Below, one piece after another: positions 26,467 through 32,001 of a stretch of DNA of 64,000 nt. The stretch is from assembly GCA_963719505.1 (NCBI GenBank), contig CAVRCF010000005.1, forward strand, positions 608,001-672,000, given 5' to 3'. Made by a program: the position numbers and the translations under genes. The notes under the pieces were generated by a model. That model was not told where the DNA came from. It worked only from the letters and a program-made list of their open reading frames with translations, and did no database searches. How positions within the stretch are numbered: position 1 is the first letter of the stretch; each line of letters begins with the position of its first letter. This DNA comes from Halobacteriovoraceae bacterium. GTDB taxonomy: Bacteria; Bdellovibrionota; Bacteriovoracia; Bacteriovoracales; Bacteriovoracaceae.

Positions 26467-28092
26467 GTGGACAATAATTCAAAAAATAGTCTTATCCCCC
26501 TTCTTATTCAAAAACCTGAAAATCTAAAAAATGATATATTGTCGGGACTAACAGTTGCTCTTGCACTGATACCTGAAGCCATCGCATTCTCATTTGTTGC
26601 CGGAGTCTCTCCGAAAGTTGGTCTCTATGCGGCTTTTATGATGGGACTTATTACGGCCATCTTTGGTGGACGCCCAGGAATGATCTCTGGGGCCACAGGT
26701 GCTGTTGCTGTTATCTTCACCCCTTTGGTTGCAAAAATCATGACTGAGTCTCAATCAAATGGTTTAACATTTGATCAAGGCATGGATATGGCTTTGGGAT
26801 ACCTCTTTGCTGCCGTTATCTTAATGGGTATTATTCAAATTCTTTTTGGTGTTTTTAAACTTGGAAAATTTATTCGTCTCGTTCCCCATCCGGTTATGCT
26901 CGGCTTTGTAAACGGGCTTGCTATTATAATCTTTAAAGCCCAATTTTCTCAGTTTACTAGTGGAGGAGACATTCTTCCAACAAATCAACTGATGGTTATG
27001 TTTGCTTTAATCGCTCTTACAATGGGCATAAGTGTCTTTTTACCAAAGCTTACAAAAGCTGTACCAGCGACTTTAGCTGGAATCGTTATCGTCTCCATTA
27101 TTGGCTACTTTGTTAATCAATCAAGTCCAGGTCTTGTGAGAACAGTTCTCGATTTTGTTAAGGATATGGACCCCAATATTACTACAATTAAAGCGGGCTT
27201 TCCGACTTTTGCTCTTCCCCAGTTTCCTATGACAATGGAAGCTCTTAACTTTATTCTCCCTTTTGCTGTCATCGCAGCCGCTGTTGGTCTCATTGAATCT
27301 CTTATGACGTTAACACTCGTTGATGAGCTGACAGAGACCAGAGGGAAAGGAAATAAGGAGTGTATCGGTCAAGGTGTGGCCAATGTCGTCAATGGTTTTT
27401 TTGGTGGAATGGGTGGATGTGCCATGATTGGTCAATCCATAATCAATATTCGTGGTGGTGGAAGAGGAAGGACTTCAGGTATTACTGCGGCAGTTGCTCT
27501 TTTAGCTTTTATTATTTTTGGCTCATTCCTAATCGAAATGATCCCTCTTGCCGCATTGGTTGGAGTCATGTTCATGGTTGTTATCGGAACCTTCGAATGG
27601 TCAAGCCTTCGCCTATTTAACAAGATCCCTAAAGCAGATATCTTTGTCGTTATACTCGTCTCCACAGTTACCGTCTTTTTTGACCTGGCCATTGCCGTTA
27701 TCGTTGGGATTATTGTCTCTGCTTTGGTCTTTGCCTGGGAACATGGAAAATCTATCAAGGTAGAGATAACAGAGAGTAAGGGAGCAAAATATTATAAACT
27801 TCACGGTCCCCTATTTTTTAGTTCAGTCACCTCTTTTAAAGATCTGTTTGATTTCAAAAAAGATCCAGAACATATCTACATCGACTTTGAAGATTCTAAA
27901 ATTTGGGATCACTCTGGAATTGAGGCTCTTCAAAATATCACTGAGAGATACGCTCAAAATGATAAGAAGCTTCACCTTTTAAATGTTAATCCAGACTGCA
28001 AGCTGCTTCTTGAAAAGGCATCAAATATTGTTGAATTAAAAGTTGTAGACCACGCAGAATACCATATTGCAGATGATGCGCTAGATAGTTAG
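26467..28092 (+). CDS. SulP/SLC26 family anion transporter with STAS domain (start uncertain, 26401 or 26467)
   Basis: LIPEAIAF, GRPGMISGATGA, GGMGGCAMIGQS and C-terminal GPLFF STAS. Confidence 0.92.
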   Translation: MDNNSKNSLIPLLIQKPENLKNDILSGLTVALALIPEAIAFSFVAGVSPKVGLYAAFMMGLITAIFGGRPGMISGATGAVAVIFTPLVAKIMTESQSNGLTFDQGMDMALGYLFAAVILMGIIQILFGVFKLGKFIRLVPHPVMLGFVNGLAIIIFKAQFSQFTSGGDILPTNQLMVMFALIALTMGISVFLPKLTKAVPATLAGIVIVSIIGYFVNQSSPGLVRTVLDFVKDMDPNITTIKAGFPTFALPQFPMTMEALNFILPFAVIAAAVGLIESLMTLTLVDELTETRGKGNKECIGQGVANVVNGFFGGMGGCAMIGQSIINIRGGGRGRTSGITAAVALLAFIIFGSFLIEMIPLAALVGVMFMVVIGTFEWSSLRLFNKIPKADIFVVILVSTVTVFFDLAIAVIVGIIVSALVFAWEHGKSIKVEITESKGAKYYKLHGPLFFSSVTSFKDLFDFKKDPEHIYIDFEDSKIWDHSGIEALQNITERYAQNDKKLHLLNVNPDCKLLLEKASNIVELKVVDHAEYHIADDALDS

Positions 28093-28093
28093 T

Positions 28094-28454
28094 TTAAACT
28101 TTAAGGTGCATAAGTGATACAGTATTATCATCACTAAAGGCACCACCAGTACCTCCTCCACCGAATGGCACATGGAGAGGAAACTGTACTTTTCGCATAA
28201 GCTTTTAGCTGATATTCATCAAGAAGATCATCTGTCGGTTGACAGTGACTTTACCATTTAGTAAATCGAAGTCCCCTCGTGAGTTGAAAAGTGTAATTAA
28301 ATGAGTCAGTTCTCAGTAATTACATCTTTTCCAAGGTCGACTTCAAGATTCTTTACAAGCGTCTCACCTTCAAAAACAATGATATTTCATCGTGAATAAG
28401 GTAGAGACGATCTTCGTCATTGTAGGTGTAGGAGTTCTTATAAATATTTATCAT
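28094..28454 (-). pseudogene. Small frameshifted gene of about 115-120 codons with a Gly-rich C-terminus
   Basis: Stitched frames: MINIYKNSYTYNDEDRLYLIHDEI / IVFEGETLVKNLEVDLGKDVITE / DFDLLNGKVTVN / DDLLDEYQLKAYAKSTVSSPC / FGGGGTGGAFSDDNTVSLMHLKV*; GGTGG RBS-like before ATG 28454. Confidence 0.45.
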
Positions 28455-28649
28455 ATCTTAATCTACCACCATGATTTGATTAATTTCAATCTAATATGAA
28501 GTGACTTCAACAGAAAGTTATTGGTAAGCCTTATTCGACTTGCTCAGTGCAAGTTCAGAACAAGGAATTTAACTTCATATTTCGGCTATAAACTATGTAT
28601 ATCGAAAAAAGACTATTAAAGACTATTTATGGCCATACACCAATTTTTT

Positions 28650-30293
28650 GTCGGCAGTAAGTTGAAGCCAGAAGAGATTAAGGTATCCTTTCTGTTAGCT
28701 TTGGAAAAGTTTTTGTAACTTGTCGCTTTGATATCATAGCTGTGGATACTGCTATTTTTGTAATGGTGTAATTGATTCTAAAAACTGATAGCTTCCAACT
28801 GTGAAAAACGGTTTCTTACCGCCTTTTATTTACGAACAGATATTGAGGAATCAGGGAACAATGCTCTATTAAATGCGACAGATATCTTGTGAGACCTTGG
28901 ACGTTGAAAGGTTATGCTTTAAAGATGTCGCGAGGATTGATTGCAATGATTTCGAATTTCGAGGAATACTCTTCAGTCTTTCATATTTGAAATCTTTAAC
29001 TCCGAATCATTAGAAGTAACTGAATGTATTTTAATTCTGAATAAGCTTTATTTTGGTCTCGAAATTACAAATTATATGTAACCTGTATTGATGCTAATTC
29101 TGAAACTTTTGAGAAAACGCTTAAAGATTCACCTAAAAGTCCGGGGTAAGACCATGCAGAATTCGAAATACTCTTTTTATCTTCTCGCTTCGTCGACTTG
29201 AAAGTTTTCTTTTAGACATTGAACCCAAAGGTCACAGGAGTTTTACTTTTAAATTTGAATTATTTTTAGAGCAGACTCGATTACAGACGCAAAATGATTA
29301 GATAATTATAACAATCATTATGAGCAAGTACAAGACATCAGGATCTGTTGGAAACAGCTTCGATTAAGTGAATCTAAGTTAGGTCCCGCGAGAATCATCT
29401 AGGCACATGACATGGATGACAAAATGAAGATGAATTAACTTCAGGCTCCACAACCAACGTCTGACTATCAATAATTTTCCCACATATGAGGGCATTTTCT
29501 GCATTTAATGCTCCGTGTCGGAGTCCGTTTAAGAGACCAGAGGTTAGAGTGATTAAATGGGCATCAAGGAGGTTGTTCCGAGCACCATTAAAGTTTTTCT
29601 ACAATCGAGCAGAAAACTTTGTTAATGCTATCGTTAAACTTCAAGTTTAACTGTAGCATTACAAAGTCTCATTGATGTTCGTGCTCTAAAACAAAGATAA
29701 TCTTCTGTCCCTACTAATATTAGAAATTGCACATACTCTTTCAGCTCCTAAGAGGAAGAGAGAGGTTTAAAAGATTGCCATAAAAGAAATCCAGTAACAA
29801 TTCATTTAGAGTCGCTTTACCACTAGAATGAGCATAATCTAACCGCTGAGCATGTTTATTTCTTCCGGCGCCTTTTATATCAAGCCCCCTTAAAAATAAA
29901 TGTCTGAGGATCCCGAATTGGAAATTTCACACCCGACTGGAATCTTTCAGCTGGAGTATAGTCCCATTAAATGCTTCGTAGAAGACTCTTGTTCACTTTA
30001 TAAAAAGCTTTATCACTTGGATCTGAAACATAACTTAGGATTGTCAATAATTTATCTTTCTCAATATCGATAATTGCATTTAGTTGTTCTTTTGAAGCGG
30101 CATCATTATGGAGCTTGTCATAGACCTTTACGAAATTTCTGTATGGGCACATCCTTGGATCTTCTAAATTTTTATTTATAAATACGGCTGCTTCTATGAG
30201 ATAATCTTTTAAAGATTCATCATAGAAAACGACTTTAGTTTCTACTGATTTTACTTTTGTTGGAGAAAAGTGTGGATGATCAAAGTAGAACAT
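28650..30293 (-). pseudogene. SelO/YdiU-like protein adenylyltransferase (pseudokinase fold), disrupted by many frameshifts or assembly errors; 3' end approximate
   Basis: The 29967-30293 ORF is the probable N-terminus; downstream frames give DIKGAGRN (29858-29881), LPLGAERVCAI, MRL and HGALNAENALICGKIID (29467-29517), matching SelO KGxGR and HGxxNxDN-x6-ID motifs in the expected order. Confidence 0.7.
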
Positions 30294-31108
30294 TTTTAAT
30301 TGACCTTATCGTTGTTGCTAAAAGTATAAATTCTGAAGTACTCCAATTGCTATCTCACGCTGAAGGATACTTGAAAGAAGTCAGAGTTGACTCTAATATT
30401 ATCATCGTTCACCACCACAAACAAAAAAATATTGAAATACCCAGAGGTTTTTTAACTATTAGCACTCAAAGGCATTCGGCTGCTCGAAGTAGAAATTTAG
30501 CCTTGAAAGAAGTTAAAAATGAAGCTGTTATTTTTCTTGACGATGATACTCTTACAAATTCTGAATGGGCCAATAATATAAGAAGGTTTTTAGAAGCAAC
30601 CTTTATCGATATTGTATGTTTCAACACAGGCTCAGAAACGTCAACGTTTAATGTTTCTTCCCTTCAAAATGGTAGGCTTTTTAAAGCTGACACAGCCGGC
30701 ATGGGAATAAAAATATCATTATTCAAATCGGGTCTAAAATTTGATGAAACTTTTAAAAGAGCTGAAGATTGTGACCTTGTCACAACAGCCATAAGAATGG
30801 GATTTATCTGCTGGTTTTGTGAAACAAAAATTTTCGATAAAAATAAAGATGGATTTATAAAAAGATTGATTCTTAAAAGAAAAAATAATTTTTATATGAA
30901 AAGATTGTTCAATAAACATTTTTCAACAACGAAGAAAGTTAAAATGCTTAAGAAGAATTTTGTTTATTTATTTAAAGGACAGAAAATCCAAGGAAATATC
31001 TATATTTTGAATTCTGCTCTAGTCATTGACCAGGTTGAAAAGAAGTTCGATATGAGGTCTTATGATATTATTGAGAAAAATAATATTCGCATCATCACAG
31101 AAATTTAA
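30257..31108 (+). CDS. Glycosyltransferase family 2 (start codon uncertain)
   Basis: SAARSRNLAL, IFLDDD (DxD) and FDETFKRAEDCDL motifs. Confidence 0.8.
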   Translation: MLEKSVDDQSRTFLIDLIVVAKSINSEVLQLLSHAEGYLKEVRVDSNIIIVHHHKQKNIEIPRGFLTISTQRHSAARSRNLALKEVKNEAVIFLDDDTLTNSEWANNIRRFLEATFIDIVCFNTGSETSTFNVSSLQNGRLFKADTAGMGIKISLFKSGLKFDETFKRAEDCDLVTTAIRMGFICWFCETKIFDKNKDGFIKRLILKRKNNFYMKRLFNKHFSTTKKVKMLKKNFVYLFKGQKIQGNIYILNSALVIDQVEKKFDMRSYDIIEKNNIRIITEI

Positions 31109-31142: not shown

Positions 31143-31685
31143 TTAAAAAGTAGAGTTGTATAAATTTAAATATATTGGCACTCTCGATAGAGTATTGCCA
31201 TGAGTTCCAACAGCTTGAAAGCTTCTCTCATATTCGAAATTGATCTCTTGCACGCGTCCACCAAAGAAACCACCATCTTCTTGAGGAGGAGGAGCACCAA
31301 AGCCACCACCTGATGGTGCAGGAGGCGCAGGATTTCCATAAGGATTTTGATTGTATGGATCTCGAGGAGCATAAGGATCTCTTGCAGGAGGGGCATACGG
31401 ATCGTACGCCGGCTCTGATGAAACGGGATTATTTCTCGAATTATGGGTATTTATAACGTAAGCCCCAAAGCCGATACCAGCGTATAGCCCCAAAGAAGCC
31501 CCTTGAGCAATGGCCCTAGAGTTATTTCCAAAGGCTAAGGTCGCAAAACCTAAAAGTGCACCGCCCACAGTTCCATAAGCCGTCATGATCATAAAAGCTT
31601 TAGCTTTTGGATCAAGAGCTTGCGCTTCTTTAACAGGAGTAATGAGGGAAAATAGTAAAACCAATGATATTAGTAACTTCTTCAT
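31143..31685 (-). CDS. Secreted/membrane protein with a glycine-zipper-like segment and Pro/Tyr-rich repeats
   Basis: Signal peptide, YGTVGGALLG...GASLGLYAGIGFG, repeats DPYAPPARDPYAPRDPY. Confidence 0.75.
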   Translation of the reverse strand: MKKLLISLVLLFSLITPVKEAQALDPKAKAFMIMTAYGTVGGALLGFATLAFGNNSRAIAQGASLGLYAGIGFGAYVINTHNSRNNPVSSEPAYDPYAPPARDPYAPRDPYNQNPYGNPAPPAPSGGGFGAPPPQEDGGFFGGRVQEINFEYERSFQAVGTHGNTLSRVPIYLNLYNSTF

Positions 31686-31707
31686 GTAATTAAGGTTAAC
31701 GAGGCTC

Positions 31708-32001
31708 TTAGCCTTTGGCAATAATTTTGACGATAAATTTGACACGGGTTGGAATATTTAAAAGTGATTCAAGAAATTCCGCAGAGCGTCTAAGGCGCAA
31801 AGACTGTCCCCTTCTCGCCTGTACAACTCCAAGTTGAGAGGACTTAACTTCTATCAAGTTAAGAATTTTTTGATCTATAAATGAGATATCAATCTGTCCG
31901 CAGCCGTAGCGTCTGAGCATTGCACTTGAAATCAAGACGGGTATATTTTTTTTATGAAGGGATAAGCTTAGCTTTTTTTCATTTAACAAATTCTTTAACA
32001 C
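31708..32001 (-). CDS. YraN/UPF0102-like PD-(D/E)xK nuclease-fold protein
   Basis: GQIDI...LIEVKS motif; usual position directly after rnhB. Confidence 0.65.
   Translation of the reverse strand: MLKNLLNEKKLSLSLHKKNIPVLISSAMLRRYGCGQIDISFIDQKILNLIEVKSSQLGVVQARRGQSLRLRRSAEFLESLLNIPTRVKFIVKIIAKG

Follow-up and report, generated by a model that had tools for sequence, protein, structure and literature searches.

This analysis concerns a three-kilobase region, 28.1-31.1 kb, of a 64,000-nt stretch of genomic DNA (the window), in which an intact gene for a glycosyltransferase family 2 (GT2)-like protein stands beside a long stretch that appears to be empty. All coordinates are positions in the window unless another sequence is named; G000 is the genome from which the window comes, and C1, C3, C4 and C5 are contigs of that genome. 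The largest gap in the window without an open reading frame (ORF) of at least 90 amino acids (aa) spans 28093-29966 (1874 nt). A preliminary description, made from the letters of the DNA, had claimed that this stretch is coding on the minus strand across frames, and three-frame translation bore this out, as every fragment quoted there was recovered, all on the minus strand of 28094-30293 and spread over three frames. The fragment FSPTKVKSVETKVVFYDESL was found within a 108-aa ORF at 29967-30293, and YTPAERFQSG, DIKGAGRNKHAQRLDYAHSSGKATLNE, GAERVCAI, MRL (within TSMRLCNATV) and GLRHGALNAENALICGKIID were also seen in the minus-strand translation. The residues of LPLGAERVCAI, quoted as a single peptide, are present too, but they come from two frames fused across a frameshift and not from one frame. 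The pieces line up, in the right order, along intact proteins of 556 aa, which puts the fragments beyond chance, and at the level of sequence they read as two broken genes, one for an enzyme of ~556 aa and one for a small protein of ~118 aa (Table 1).

Table 1. Position and strand of the genes and of the disrupted stretch in the window
Feature	Position	Strand	Basis
GT2-like glycosyltransferase gene	30257-31108	+	intact ORF, 283 aa, PF00535
MchC-like (distant SelO-fold) enzyme gene, in pieces	28793-30293	-	frameshift-aware alignments to P0007, P0130
Small tail-bearing protein gene (~118 aa), in pieces	28104-28454	-	alignment to P0125
Frameshift-bearing stretch, first to last placed break	28123-29984		probable consensus-error patch

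Two broken genes and their intact neighbor

The preliminary description had called for a frameshift-aware search of the hidden stretch, and alignment of this kind to intact relatives rebuilt both genes. The enzyme gene begins with an ATG at 30293, its start overlapping that of the divergent GT2-like gene by 37 nt, and can be traced to ~28800, which accounts for residues 1-494 of ~556. Two intact enzymes serve as reference points here: P0001 (559 aa), from the same-genus genome G002, and P0007 (556 aa), from the metagenome contig L044. Alignment to P0130 recovers residues 1-491 at 62% identity (299/482) with 20 frameshifts and 2 stops, and alignment to P0007 recovers residues 1-494 at 52-55% identity, where the counts vary with the alignment penalties used (5 stops with 17 frameshifts, or 0 stops with 24). 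The corrected reading preserves every one of the eight columns that do not vary in the enzyme family (R127, K137, G140, G155, R197, R203, N258 and D267 in P0001 numbering).

The small gene aligns with residues 1-118 of P0125 (118 aa) at 83% identity (95/114), with 5 one-base frameshifts and 0 stops, and keeps the four invariant residues of its family (E, A, G and C). Its tail in the window reads ...EYQLKAYAKSTVSSPCA/FGGGGTGGAFSDDN/CITYAP, matching the family alignment. The small Gly-tailed protein had been taken for a 34-aa peptide, and a 34-aa ORF does exist at 28094-28198, but the relatives are 118-130 aa long with a folded N-domain, and the ORF is the frame-shifted 3' end of the ~118-aa gene. 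The family has eight members at E ≤ 0.01, of which no fewer than five share a contig with the enzyme, and is most conserved in the tail (E-Y-x-L-K-A-Y-A-K ... C ... GG.G ... SDDN.C-ITYAP) and in the motif before it. A regular-expression search around other family members for more small ORFs with such a tail returned only those already known. In a structure model with a mean predicted local distance difference test score (pLDDT) of 61, the N-domain consists of three strands, two helices and two strands, and the tail is disordered from residue 85. The best structural match reached a Z of 3.7, which shows no known fold, and the Atlas neighbors of the protein score 0.80 or less.

The assignment of the plus-strand gene to GT2 held up. 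Its product scores above the cut-off of Pfam PF00535 (E 5.7e-6, 26.8 bits against 23.3), over the middle of the domain only (profile positions 59-124), and a profile built from three GT2 sequences (window, L044 and G002) matches solved glycosyltransferases at E 2.6e-4 to 5e-4; the G002 protein taken singly falls slightly below the cut-off at 22.7. All three proteins share FLD[DN]DT (FLDNDT in G002, otherwise FLDDDT), R.ED and an ADTAG motif. The window protein is 60% identical to the product of the syntenic gene on L044, with a ratio of nonsynonymous to synonymous divergence (dN/dS) of ~0.10 at saturated dS, and 26% identical to that of G002. The G+C content around this gene (30000-30999) is 0.29-0.32 compared with 0.35-0.43 in the flanks, which fits an acquired accessory module.

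A conserved trio with an MchC-like enzyme

A DNA search of 41 related genomes yielded a 204-nt match at 67% identity in G002, where the trio is intact at L008:9103-12038 and consists of a GT2-like gene (292 aa), the divergent gene for P0001 and a 130-aa small gene (P0002). P0001 contains DIKGAGRN..., ...HSWGG..., PLGAER and HGALTLENSLISGKFID, and P0002 ends ...AYAKYPSSTSCPGTFGGMGQGSTMSDDNTCLIEAPADP. The trio is also intact at L044:2713-5598 (GT2-like protein of 278 aa, P0007 and a small protein of 121 aa), and there the flanks are those of the window, with SulP and STAS genes to one side and, to the other, genes for a Pro/Gly-rich membrane protein, RNase HII and RplS, the flank proteins being 79-95% identical between the two. 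As both the trio and its neighbors are the same on L044, the window holds the orthologous module in a broken reading. In G002 the trio lies at another chromosomal place, and in two further genera (G076 and G072) it runs small gene, enzyme, GT2 along a single strand. The conserved three-gene unit that had been proposed was thus found intact in L044 and G002, with the trio present in two other genera as well. Directly adjoining the module, in the window (31143-31745, minus strand) and on L044 alike, is a gene whose 200-aa product combines a single hydrophobic stretch with a middle part rich in Pro, Gly and Tyr (PYAPPARDPYAPRDPYNQNPYG); this protein is 90% identical between the two and matches no Pfam family.

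The wider neighborhood of the enzyme family was sampled at 13 loci of related genomes holding 15 family members, with 144 neighboring proteins within 4.5 kb. A GT1 or GT2 gene is present in 12 of the 13 loci, and in the exception the sequence ends 600 nt past the gene. PqqD-like genes occur in five of the loci (two over the Pfam cut-off), 2-oxoglutarate (2OG)/JmjC oxygenases in six and ABC-2 exporters in three. We found nothing of a siderophore-microcin context (class IIb precursor, enterobactin glycosyltransferase or esterase, MchEF) within 4.5 kb in the scanned loci, on L044 or in the window.

Paralogous clusters of the family occur in these same genomes. One, intact at G000:C3:182763-187074 (L035 5763-10074), encodes a 60-aa two-Cys peptide, a PqqD-like protein, a GT1, a 466-aa MchC-like enzyme, a second GT1 and a DUF6445 protein. 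A second MchC-like cluster in G002, of PqqD type, shares a contig with the trio of that genome and lies 10 kb from it (L034, G002:C19:24000-40000), beside a BrnT/BrnA toxin-antitoxin pair. The short peptides beside PqqD-like genes end ...TLS(A/V)(F/Y)A... followed by a two-Cys stretch, a pattern that recalls the small proteins of the trio, in which ...L(K/E)AYAKY... precedes C...C.

The enzyme had been described as SelO/YdiU-like, and structure supports the fold. A word-index search for relatives of P0001 returned only three, and an exhaustive search gave 117 cluster representatives at E ≤ 1e-3. An AlphaFold2 model of P0001, made from an alignment of 96 relatives, has a pLDDT of 91.7; its best seven VIA structure matches are all YdiU/SelO (Z 18.0-20.9, root-mean-square deviation 3.8-4.4 Å, 287-306 residues aligned, model residues 5-470), followed by siderophore synthetases (Z 11.8 and 9.7) and protein kinases (~7), and its best seven Foldseek matches are YdiU too. 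The fold check that had been suggested for the rebuilt protein was thus made on the model of an intact relative, and it gave the SelO/YdiU fold. With the family profile, SelO chains come up at E 4e-10, in alignments that pair R..R, the Asn in ...DN and the Asp in ...LDYG, and the Lys, both Arg, the Asn and the Asp are invariant in 96 of 96 family members. We take the Lys, the Arg..Arg, the Asp-Asn and the Asp of ID/DYG to be nucleotide-site residues of SelO. The replacement by Glu of SelO's Asp before the invariant Asn, noticed earlier in the fragments, recurs in the family: at this column 38 of the 96 members have E, 25 have S and 23 have D.

Membership of the SelO family proper is another matter. 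P0001 alone has no match in Pfam or NCBIfam (SelO is absent from both even at E up to 1) or among PDB sequences, the stretch is not among the PF02696 matches of its genome, two of the 56 scanned relatives match Pfam SelO (both under the cut-off), and 8 of 96 family members match the NCBIfam YdiU model. A tblastn search of the stretch with the two SelO-like proteins of the genome gave a single 32-aa match (E 0.004), too weak to decide. As the enzyme lacks a SelO match in Pfam and NCBIfam, "SelO family member" is too strong a label, and we call it MchC-like instead. A likeness to MchC and MceJ had been suggested in the preliminary description, and profile comparison sustains it. MchC was located in E. 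coli CFT073 (L041:27322-28872) as a 516-aa "hypothetical protein" between mchB and an HlyC-type acyltransferase gene. Against it the family profile scores 99.86% in hhalign (E 4.3e-31, 319 columns), compared with 95.5% (E 1.5e-8, 165 columns) against the canonical SelO of G000, which lies at C5:702006-703139 and was itself identified at E 1e-96. In addition, P0001 and MchC align in BLASTP at E 5e-7 across the KG.G.N/HS.G region, and the Atlas neighbors of the enzyme include an "MchC protein" cluster with a score of 0.96. By these alignments the enzyme is far closer to MchC than to the SelO of its own genome. MchC itself has been placed as a distant SelO subfamily, with variation noted at the motif equivalent to HGD of kinases, in the passages of Dudkiewicz et al. 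2012 (PMC3281104) that treat it.

Across the phylum, 401 genomes were sampled; the family profile has hits at E ≤ 1e-10 in 79 of them, and a hand tally gives 26 with matches at E ≤ 1e-28 that begin at the profile start; the weaker matches are presumably ordinary SelO. Many of the strong matches across this sample sit in open frames of 610-754 aa. In G000 itself, the SelO-like genes include a divergent third one, a 609-aa open frame at G000:C3:388537-390363 that matches Pfam SelO weakly (E 3.4e-7). One distant relative, P0076 (735 aa), carries a fused C-terminal HlyC acyltransferase domain, combining MceJ and MceI in one chain.

Origin of the frameshifts

Across the enzyme and the small gene the breaks amount to 25-29 one-base frameshifts compared with 0-5 stops. 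Nearly all are gains or losses of a single base and are not at long homopolymers; they are absent from the first 310 nt of the enzyme gene, from the GT2 gene and from the SulP gene that ends at 28092. Such stretches recur in this assembly. The genome has 64 stretches of at least 700 nt without any 90-aa ORF, and 10 of the 21 largest ORF-free stretches tested hold at least five coding-like segments, mostly switching frame on one strand (one of the ten is probably ribosomal RNA). One stretch that was opened, outside the window at G000:C5:971260-974230 (L053 862-3834), contains gspE, the type II secretion ATPase gene, as six colinear fragments of Pfam T2SSE. Compared with its intact G002 orthologue, gspE has 15 frameshifts and 0 stops at 88.5% identity across 574 residues, and the adjacent gspF is 79.6% identical to its G002 orthologue with 12 frameshifts and 1 stop. 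Indels in such numbers without matching substitutions are not neutral decay, and the assembly therefore contains patches of single-base consensus errors. As the stretch in the window bears the same signature, it is read as such a patch, and on this analogy we consider assembly error considerably more likely than true pseudogenes as the source of the breaks; the two minus-strand genes are probably intact in the organism. The earlier statement that normal gene calling would miss these genes is right in that they are hidden; going by the gspE/gspF pattern, the cause is most likely single-base assembly errors and not biology.

Among the other ORF-free stretches, G000:C5:1240852-1242897 holds a catalase-peroxidase gene in at least three fragments, and G000:C1:203650-221521 and G000:C4:4291-21375 are multi-gene tracts of ~17-18 kb with frame-switching coding signal. 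Explanations by an alternative genetic code or by programmed frameshifting were rejected, as the breaks are of both signs, irregularly spaced and without a common motif, and the same pattern is found in unrelated genes.

The alternative is that the enzyme and small genes are true pseudogenes of a module decaying in this lineage, the glycosyltransferase surviving or not yet struck. The many disruptions, an enzyme gene whose end is beyond recognition and the 2-5 stops in some alignments speak for decay, as does the accessory nature of the module: a query with P0001 found none in two other genomes of the genus, G001 (87% complete) and G003 (82%), and the G002 trio is at another place. Decay would have to explain, however, why the breaks are nearly all one-base indels, why 8/8 invariant columns of the enzyme and 4/4 of the small protein are kept, and why divergence at codon positions runs 2 < 1 < 3 in the broken genes as in the intact GT2 gene (a comparison biased by the amino-acid-guided alignment). 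The dN/dS against L044 was unable to date any inactivation, dS being saturated. The gspE/gspF patch shows the same pattern at identities that leave no room for the substitutions of neutral decay. We therefore regard decay as unlikely here, while giving it real weight, and prefer assembly error as the account of the breaks.

Proposed working and comparison with known systems

From the gene identities, the fold, the kinship with MchC, the conserved trio and the error pattern described above, we hold with moderate confidence that 28.1-31.1 kb is a three-gene accessory module of a Halobacteriovorax-like predatory bacterium, comprising the GT2-like glycosyltransferase, a ~556-aa SelO-fold enzyme of MchC/MceJ type and a ~118-aa tailed protein, with breaks most likely due to assembly errors and with modification of the tail as its proposed role. 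The small protein would be the substrate. The AMPylation, and the nucleotidyl activation plus glycosylation of a dedicated substrate, put forward in the preliminary description likewise stand as hypotheses. In the enzyme, the conserved Lys, Asn, Asp and pair of Arg would bind ATP, by analogy with MceJ/MchC, for which Nolan and Walsh reportedly described ATP dependence in 2008. The enzyme would then activate a group on the tail of the small protein, either a carboxylate (C-terminal or of Asp) or a Ser/Thr/Tyr hydroxyl as in SelO; from the variable residue at the position of the SelO catalytic base, we infer that a carboxylate nucleophile would fit better than a hydroxyl. The GT2-like enzyme would supply or attach a sugar, giving a glycosyl-linked, modified tail.

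Several observations weigh against this reading. The account of the breaks as an error patch, although the most likely one, is drawn by analogy with other loci of the same assembly, and the clean first 310 nt of the enzyme gene have to be accommodated by error and decay alike. The last ~65 codons of the enzyme gene, down to ~28600, are untraceable, 2-5 in-frame stops persist in it at some penalty settings, and the closest references are only 62% identical for the enzyme and 83% for the small gene. The small protein matches no Pfam or NCBIfam family, and the residue at the catalytic Asp position of SelO varies in the enzyme family. No HlyC-type partner (MceI/MchD; PF02794) was found among the 144 neighbors of the 13 loci; of the window flanks, the SulP, STAS and Pro/Gly-rich proteins were scanned, and the neighbors on L044 are genes of the same kinds as these flanks. 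Finally, the three-gene form has no transporter or peptidase.

Two other assignments of function were weighed. The small protein could be a recognition or chaperone subunit, like the recognition elements (RRE) of pathways for peptides that are made on the ribosome and modified after translation (RiPPs), its tail being incidental and the substrate a short peptide or non-peptide acceptor encoded elsewhere. The paralogous clusters, where a separate PqqD-like protein stands beside a 60-66-aa two-Cys peptide, point this way, as does the strand-strand-strand-helix-helix order of the N-domain. Six proteins of RRE type are among the 50 structural matches listed for the small-protein model, at Z 2.8-3.4, which is noise level; lasso-peptide B1 proteins bound to leader peptides, which are RRE proteins, match at Z 3.1-3.4 (against a model of pLDDT 61). 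Kinship with PqqD is unsupported, since hhalign against 10 PqqD-like neighbors gives 0.8% and none of the eight family members matches Pfam PqqD. The tail and the motif before it are the best conserved part of the protein, this motif resembles the ...L-S-A/V-F/Y-A... before the Cys-rich end of the short peptides, and the three-gene loci have no other small gene; we regard a subunit role as improbable. We give still less credence, regarding it as very unlikely, to an AMPylase or UMPylase of SelO/YdiU type whose targets would be cellular proteins in stress control and whose gene would merely neighbor the other two. Such an enzyme would share the SelO fold, the NCBIfam YdiU matches of 8/96 members and the Lys, Arg, Arg, Asn and Asp that align with the nucleotide-site motifs of YdiU, but a canonical SelO is already encoded in the genome, MchC is by far the closer relative of the family, four genera share the trio in two gene orders and at two chromosomal places, and family members lie among PqqD-like, glycosyltransferase, oxygenase and ABC-2 genes. 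Our preferred reading remains a module in which the small protein would be modified on its tail.

The enzyme kind is already known, and a literature search did not find its setting described, namely predatory bacteria, a GT2, a tail-bearing protein, the lack of an HlyC partner and PqqD-type paralogous clusters; nor did it return a paper tying SelO- or MchC-like enzymes to PqqD-type RiPP clusters. As a tentative proposal, to which we give somewhat less than even chances, the MchC-like SelO-fold enzymes may form an undescribed class of peptide or protein-tail modification in Bdellovibrionota, using ATP to activate a Cys/Gly-rich tail for a glycosyl-linked modification without an HlyC-type partner. 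The precursor would be either a 60-66-aa peptide with a separate PqqD-like protein or a 118-134-aa protein with a fused recognition domain, and the trio of the window would be the minimal self-contained form. MchC/MceJ is the only branch of the SelO fold tied to natural-product maturation, and here that branch appears in predatory bacteria with no siderophore, no microcin and no HlyC-type partner. Its genes are in tight linkage with glycosyltransferases and with a small protein whose conserved tail is Gly-rich and has two Cys. If the small protein is the substrate, three genes would make a compact system for a direct test of SelO-fold chemistry, carboxylate activation or hydroxyl AMPylation, on a defined tail. 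The error patches also matter in themselves, as they hide whole genes, and the "pseudogenes" and empty stretches of this assembly should not be taken for biology without the reads.

In the relevant passages of PMC3281104, MchC/MceJ is reported only from siderophore-microcin clusters of a few gamma-proteobacteria, and MchC and MceI are described there and in the corresponding part of PMC7680869 as taking part in joining a glucosylated siderophore to the carboxylate of the microcin's C-terminal serine. The MchC/MceJ enzymes of microcins H47, M and E492 resemble the window-type enzyme in profile homology and in the common signatures ...ER(F/Y)..N.G..R...Q.KG.G.N.L...D..HS.G... and ...N...DGR.(I/M)D, and a glycosyltransferase is present in both kinds of cluster. 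That of the window-type loci is GT2-like, and that of the siderophore-microcin clusters is IroB-like, a different class. Unlike the microcin clusters, window-type loci lack an adjoining HlyC-type acyltransferase, a microcin precursor, enterobactin genes and an MchEF exporter. The presumed substrate, 118-134 aa in length, is a protein that has an N-domain of its own, the long form of the enzyme has ~90 additional C-terminal residues, and the host is a predatory Bdellovibrionota bacterium where the microcin hosts are enterobacteria.

With SelO/YdiU (PF02696) the enzyme shares the fold (Z 18-20.9) and the aligned Arg..Arg, Asn and Asp motifs. It differs in its ~14% identity in the structural alignments, in an Asp before the invariant Asn that is not conserved, and in a biosynthetic-looking neighborhood within a genome that has a separate canonical SelO. 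Compared with RiPP pathways that depend on a PqqD-like RRE, the three-gene form has no separate PqqD gene, and the likeness lies in the paralogous clusters of the enzyme family, which pair PqqD-like genes with two-Cys peptides, glycosyltransferases, 2OG/JmjC oxygenases and ABC-2 exporters.

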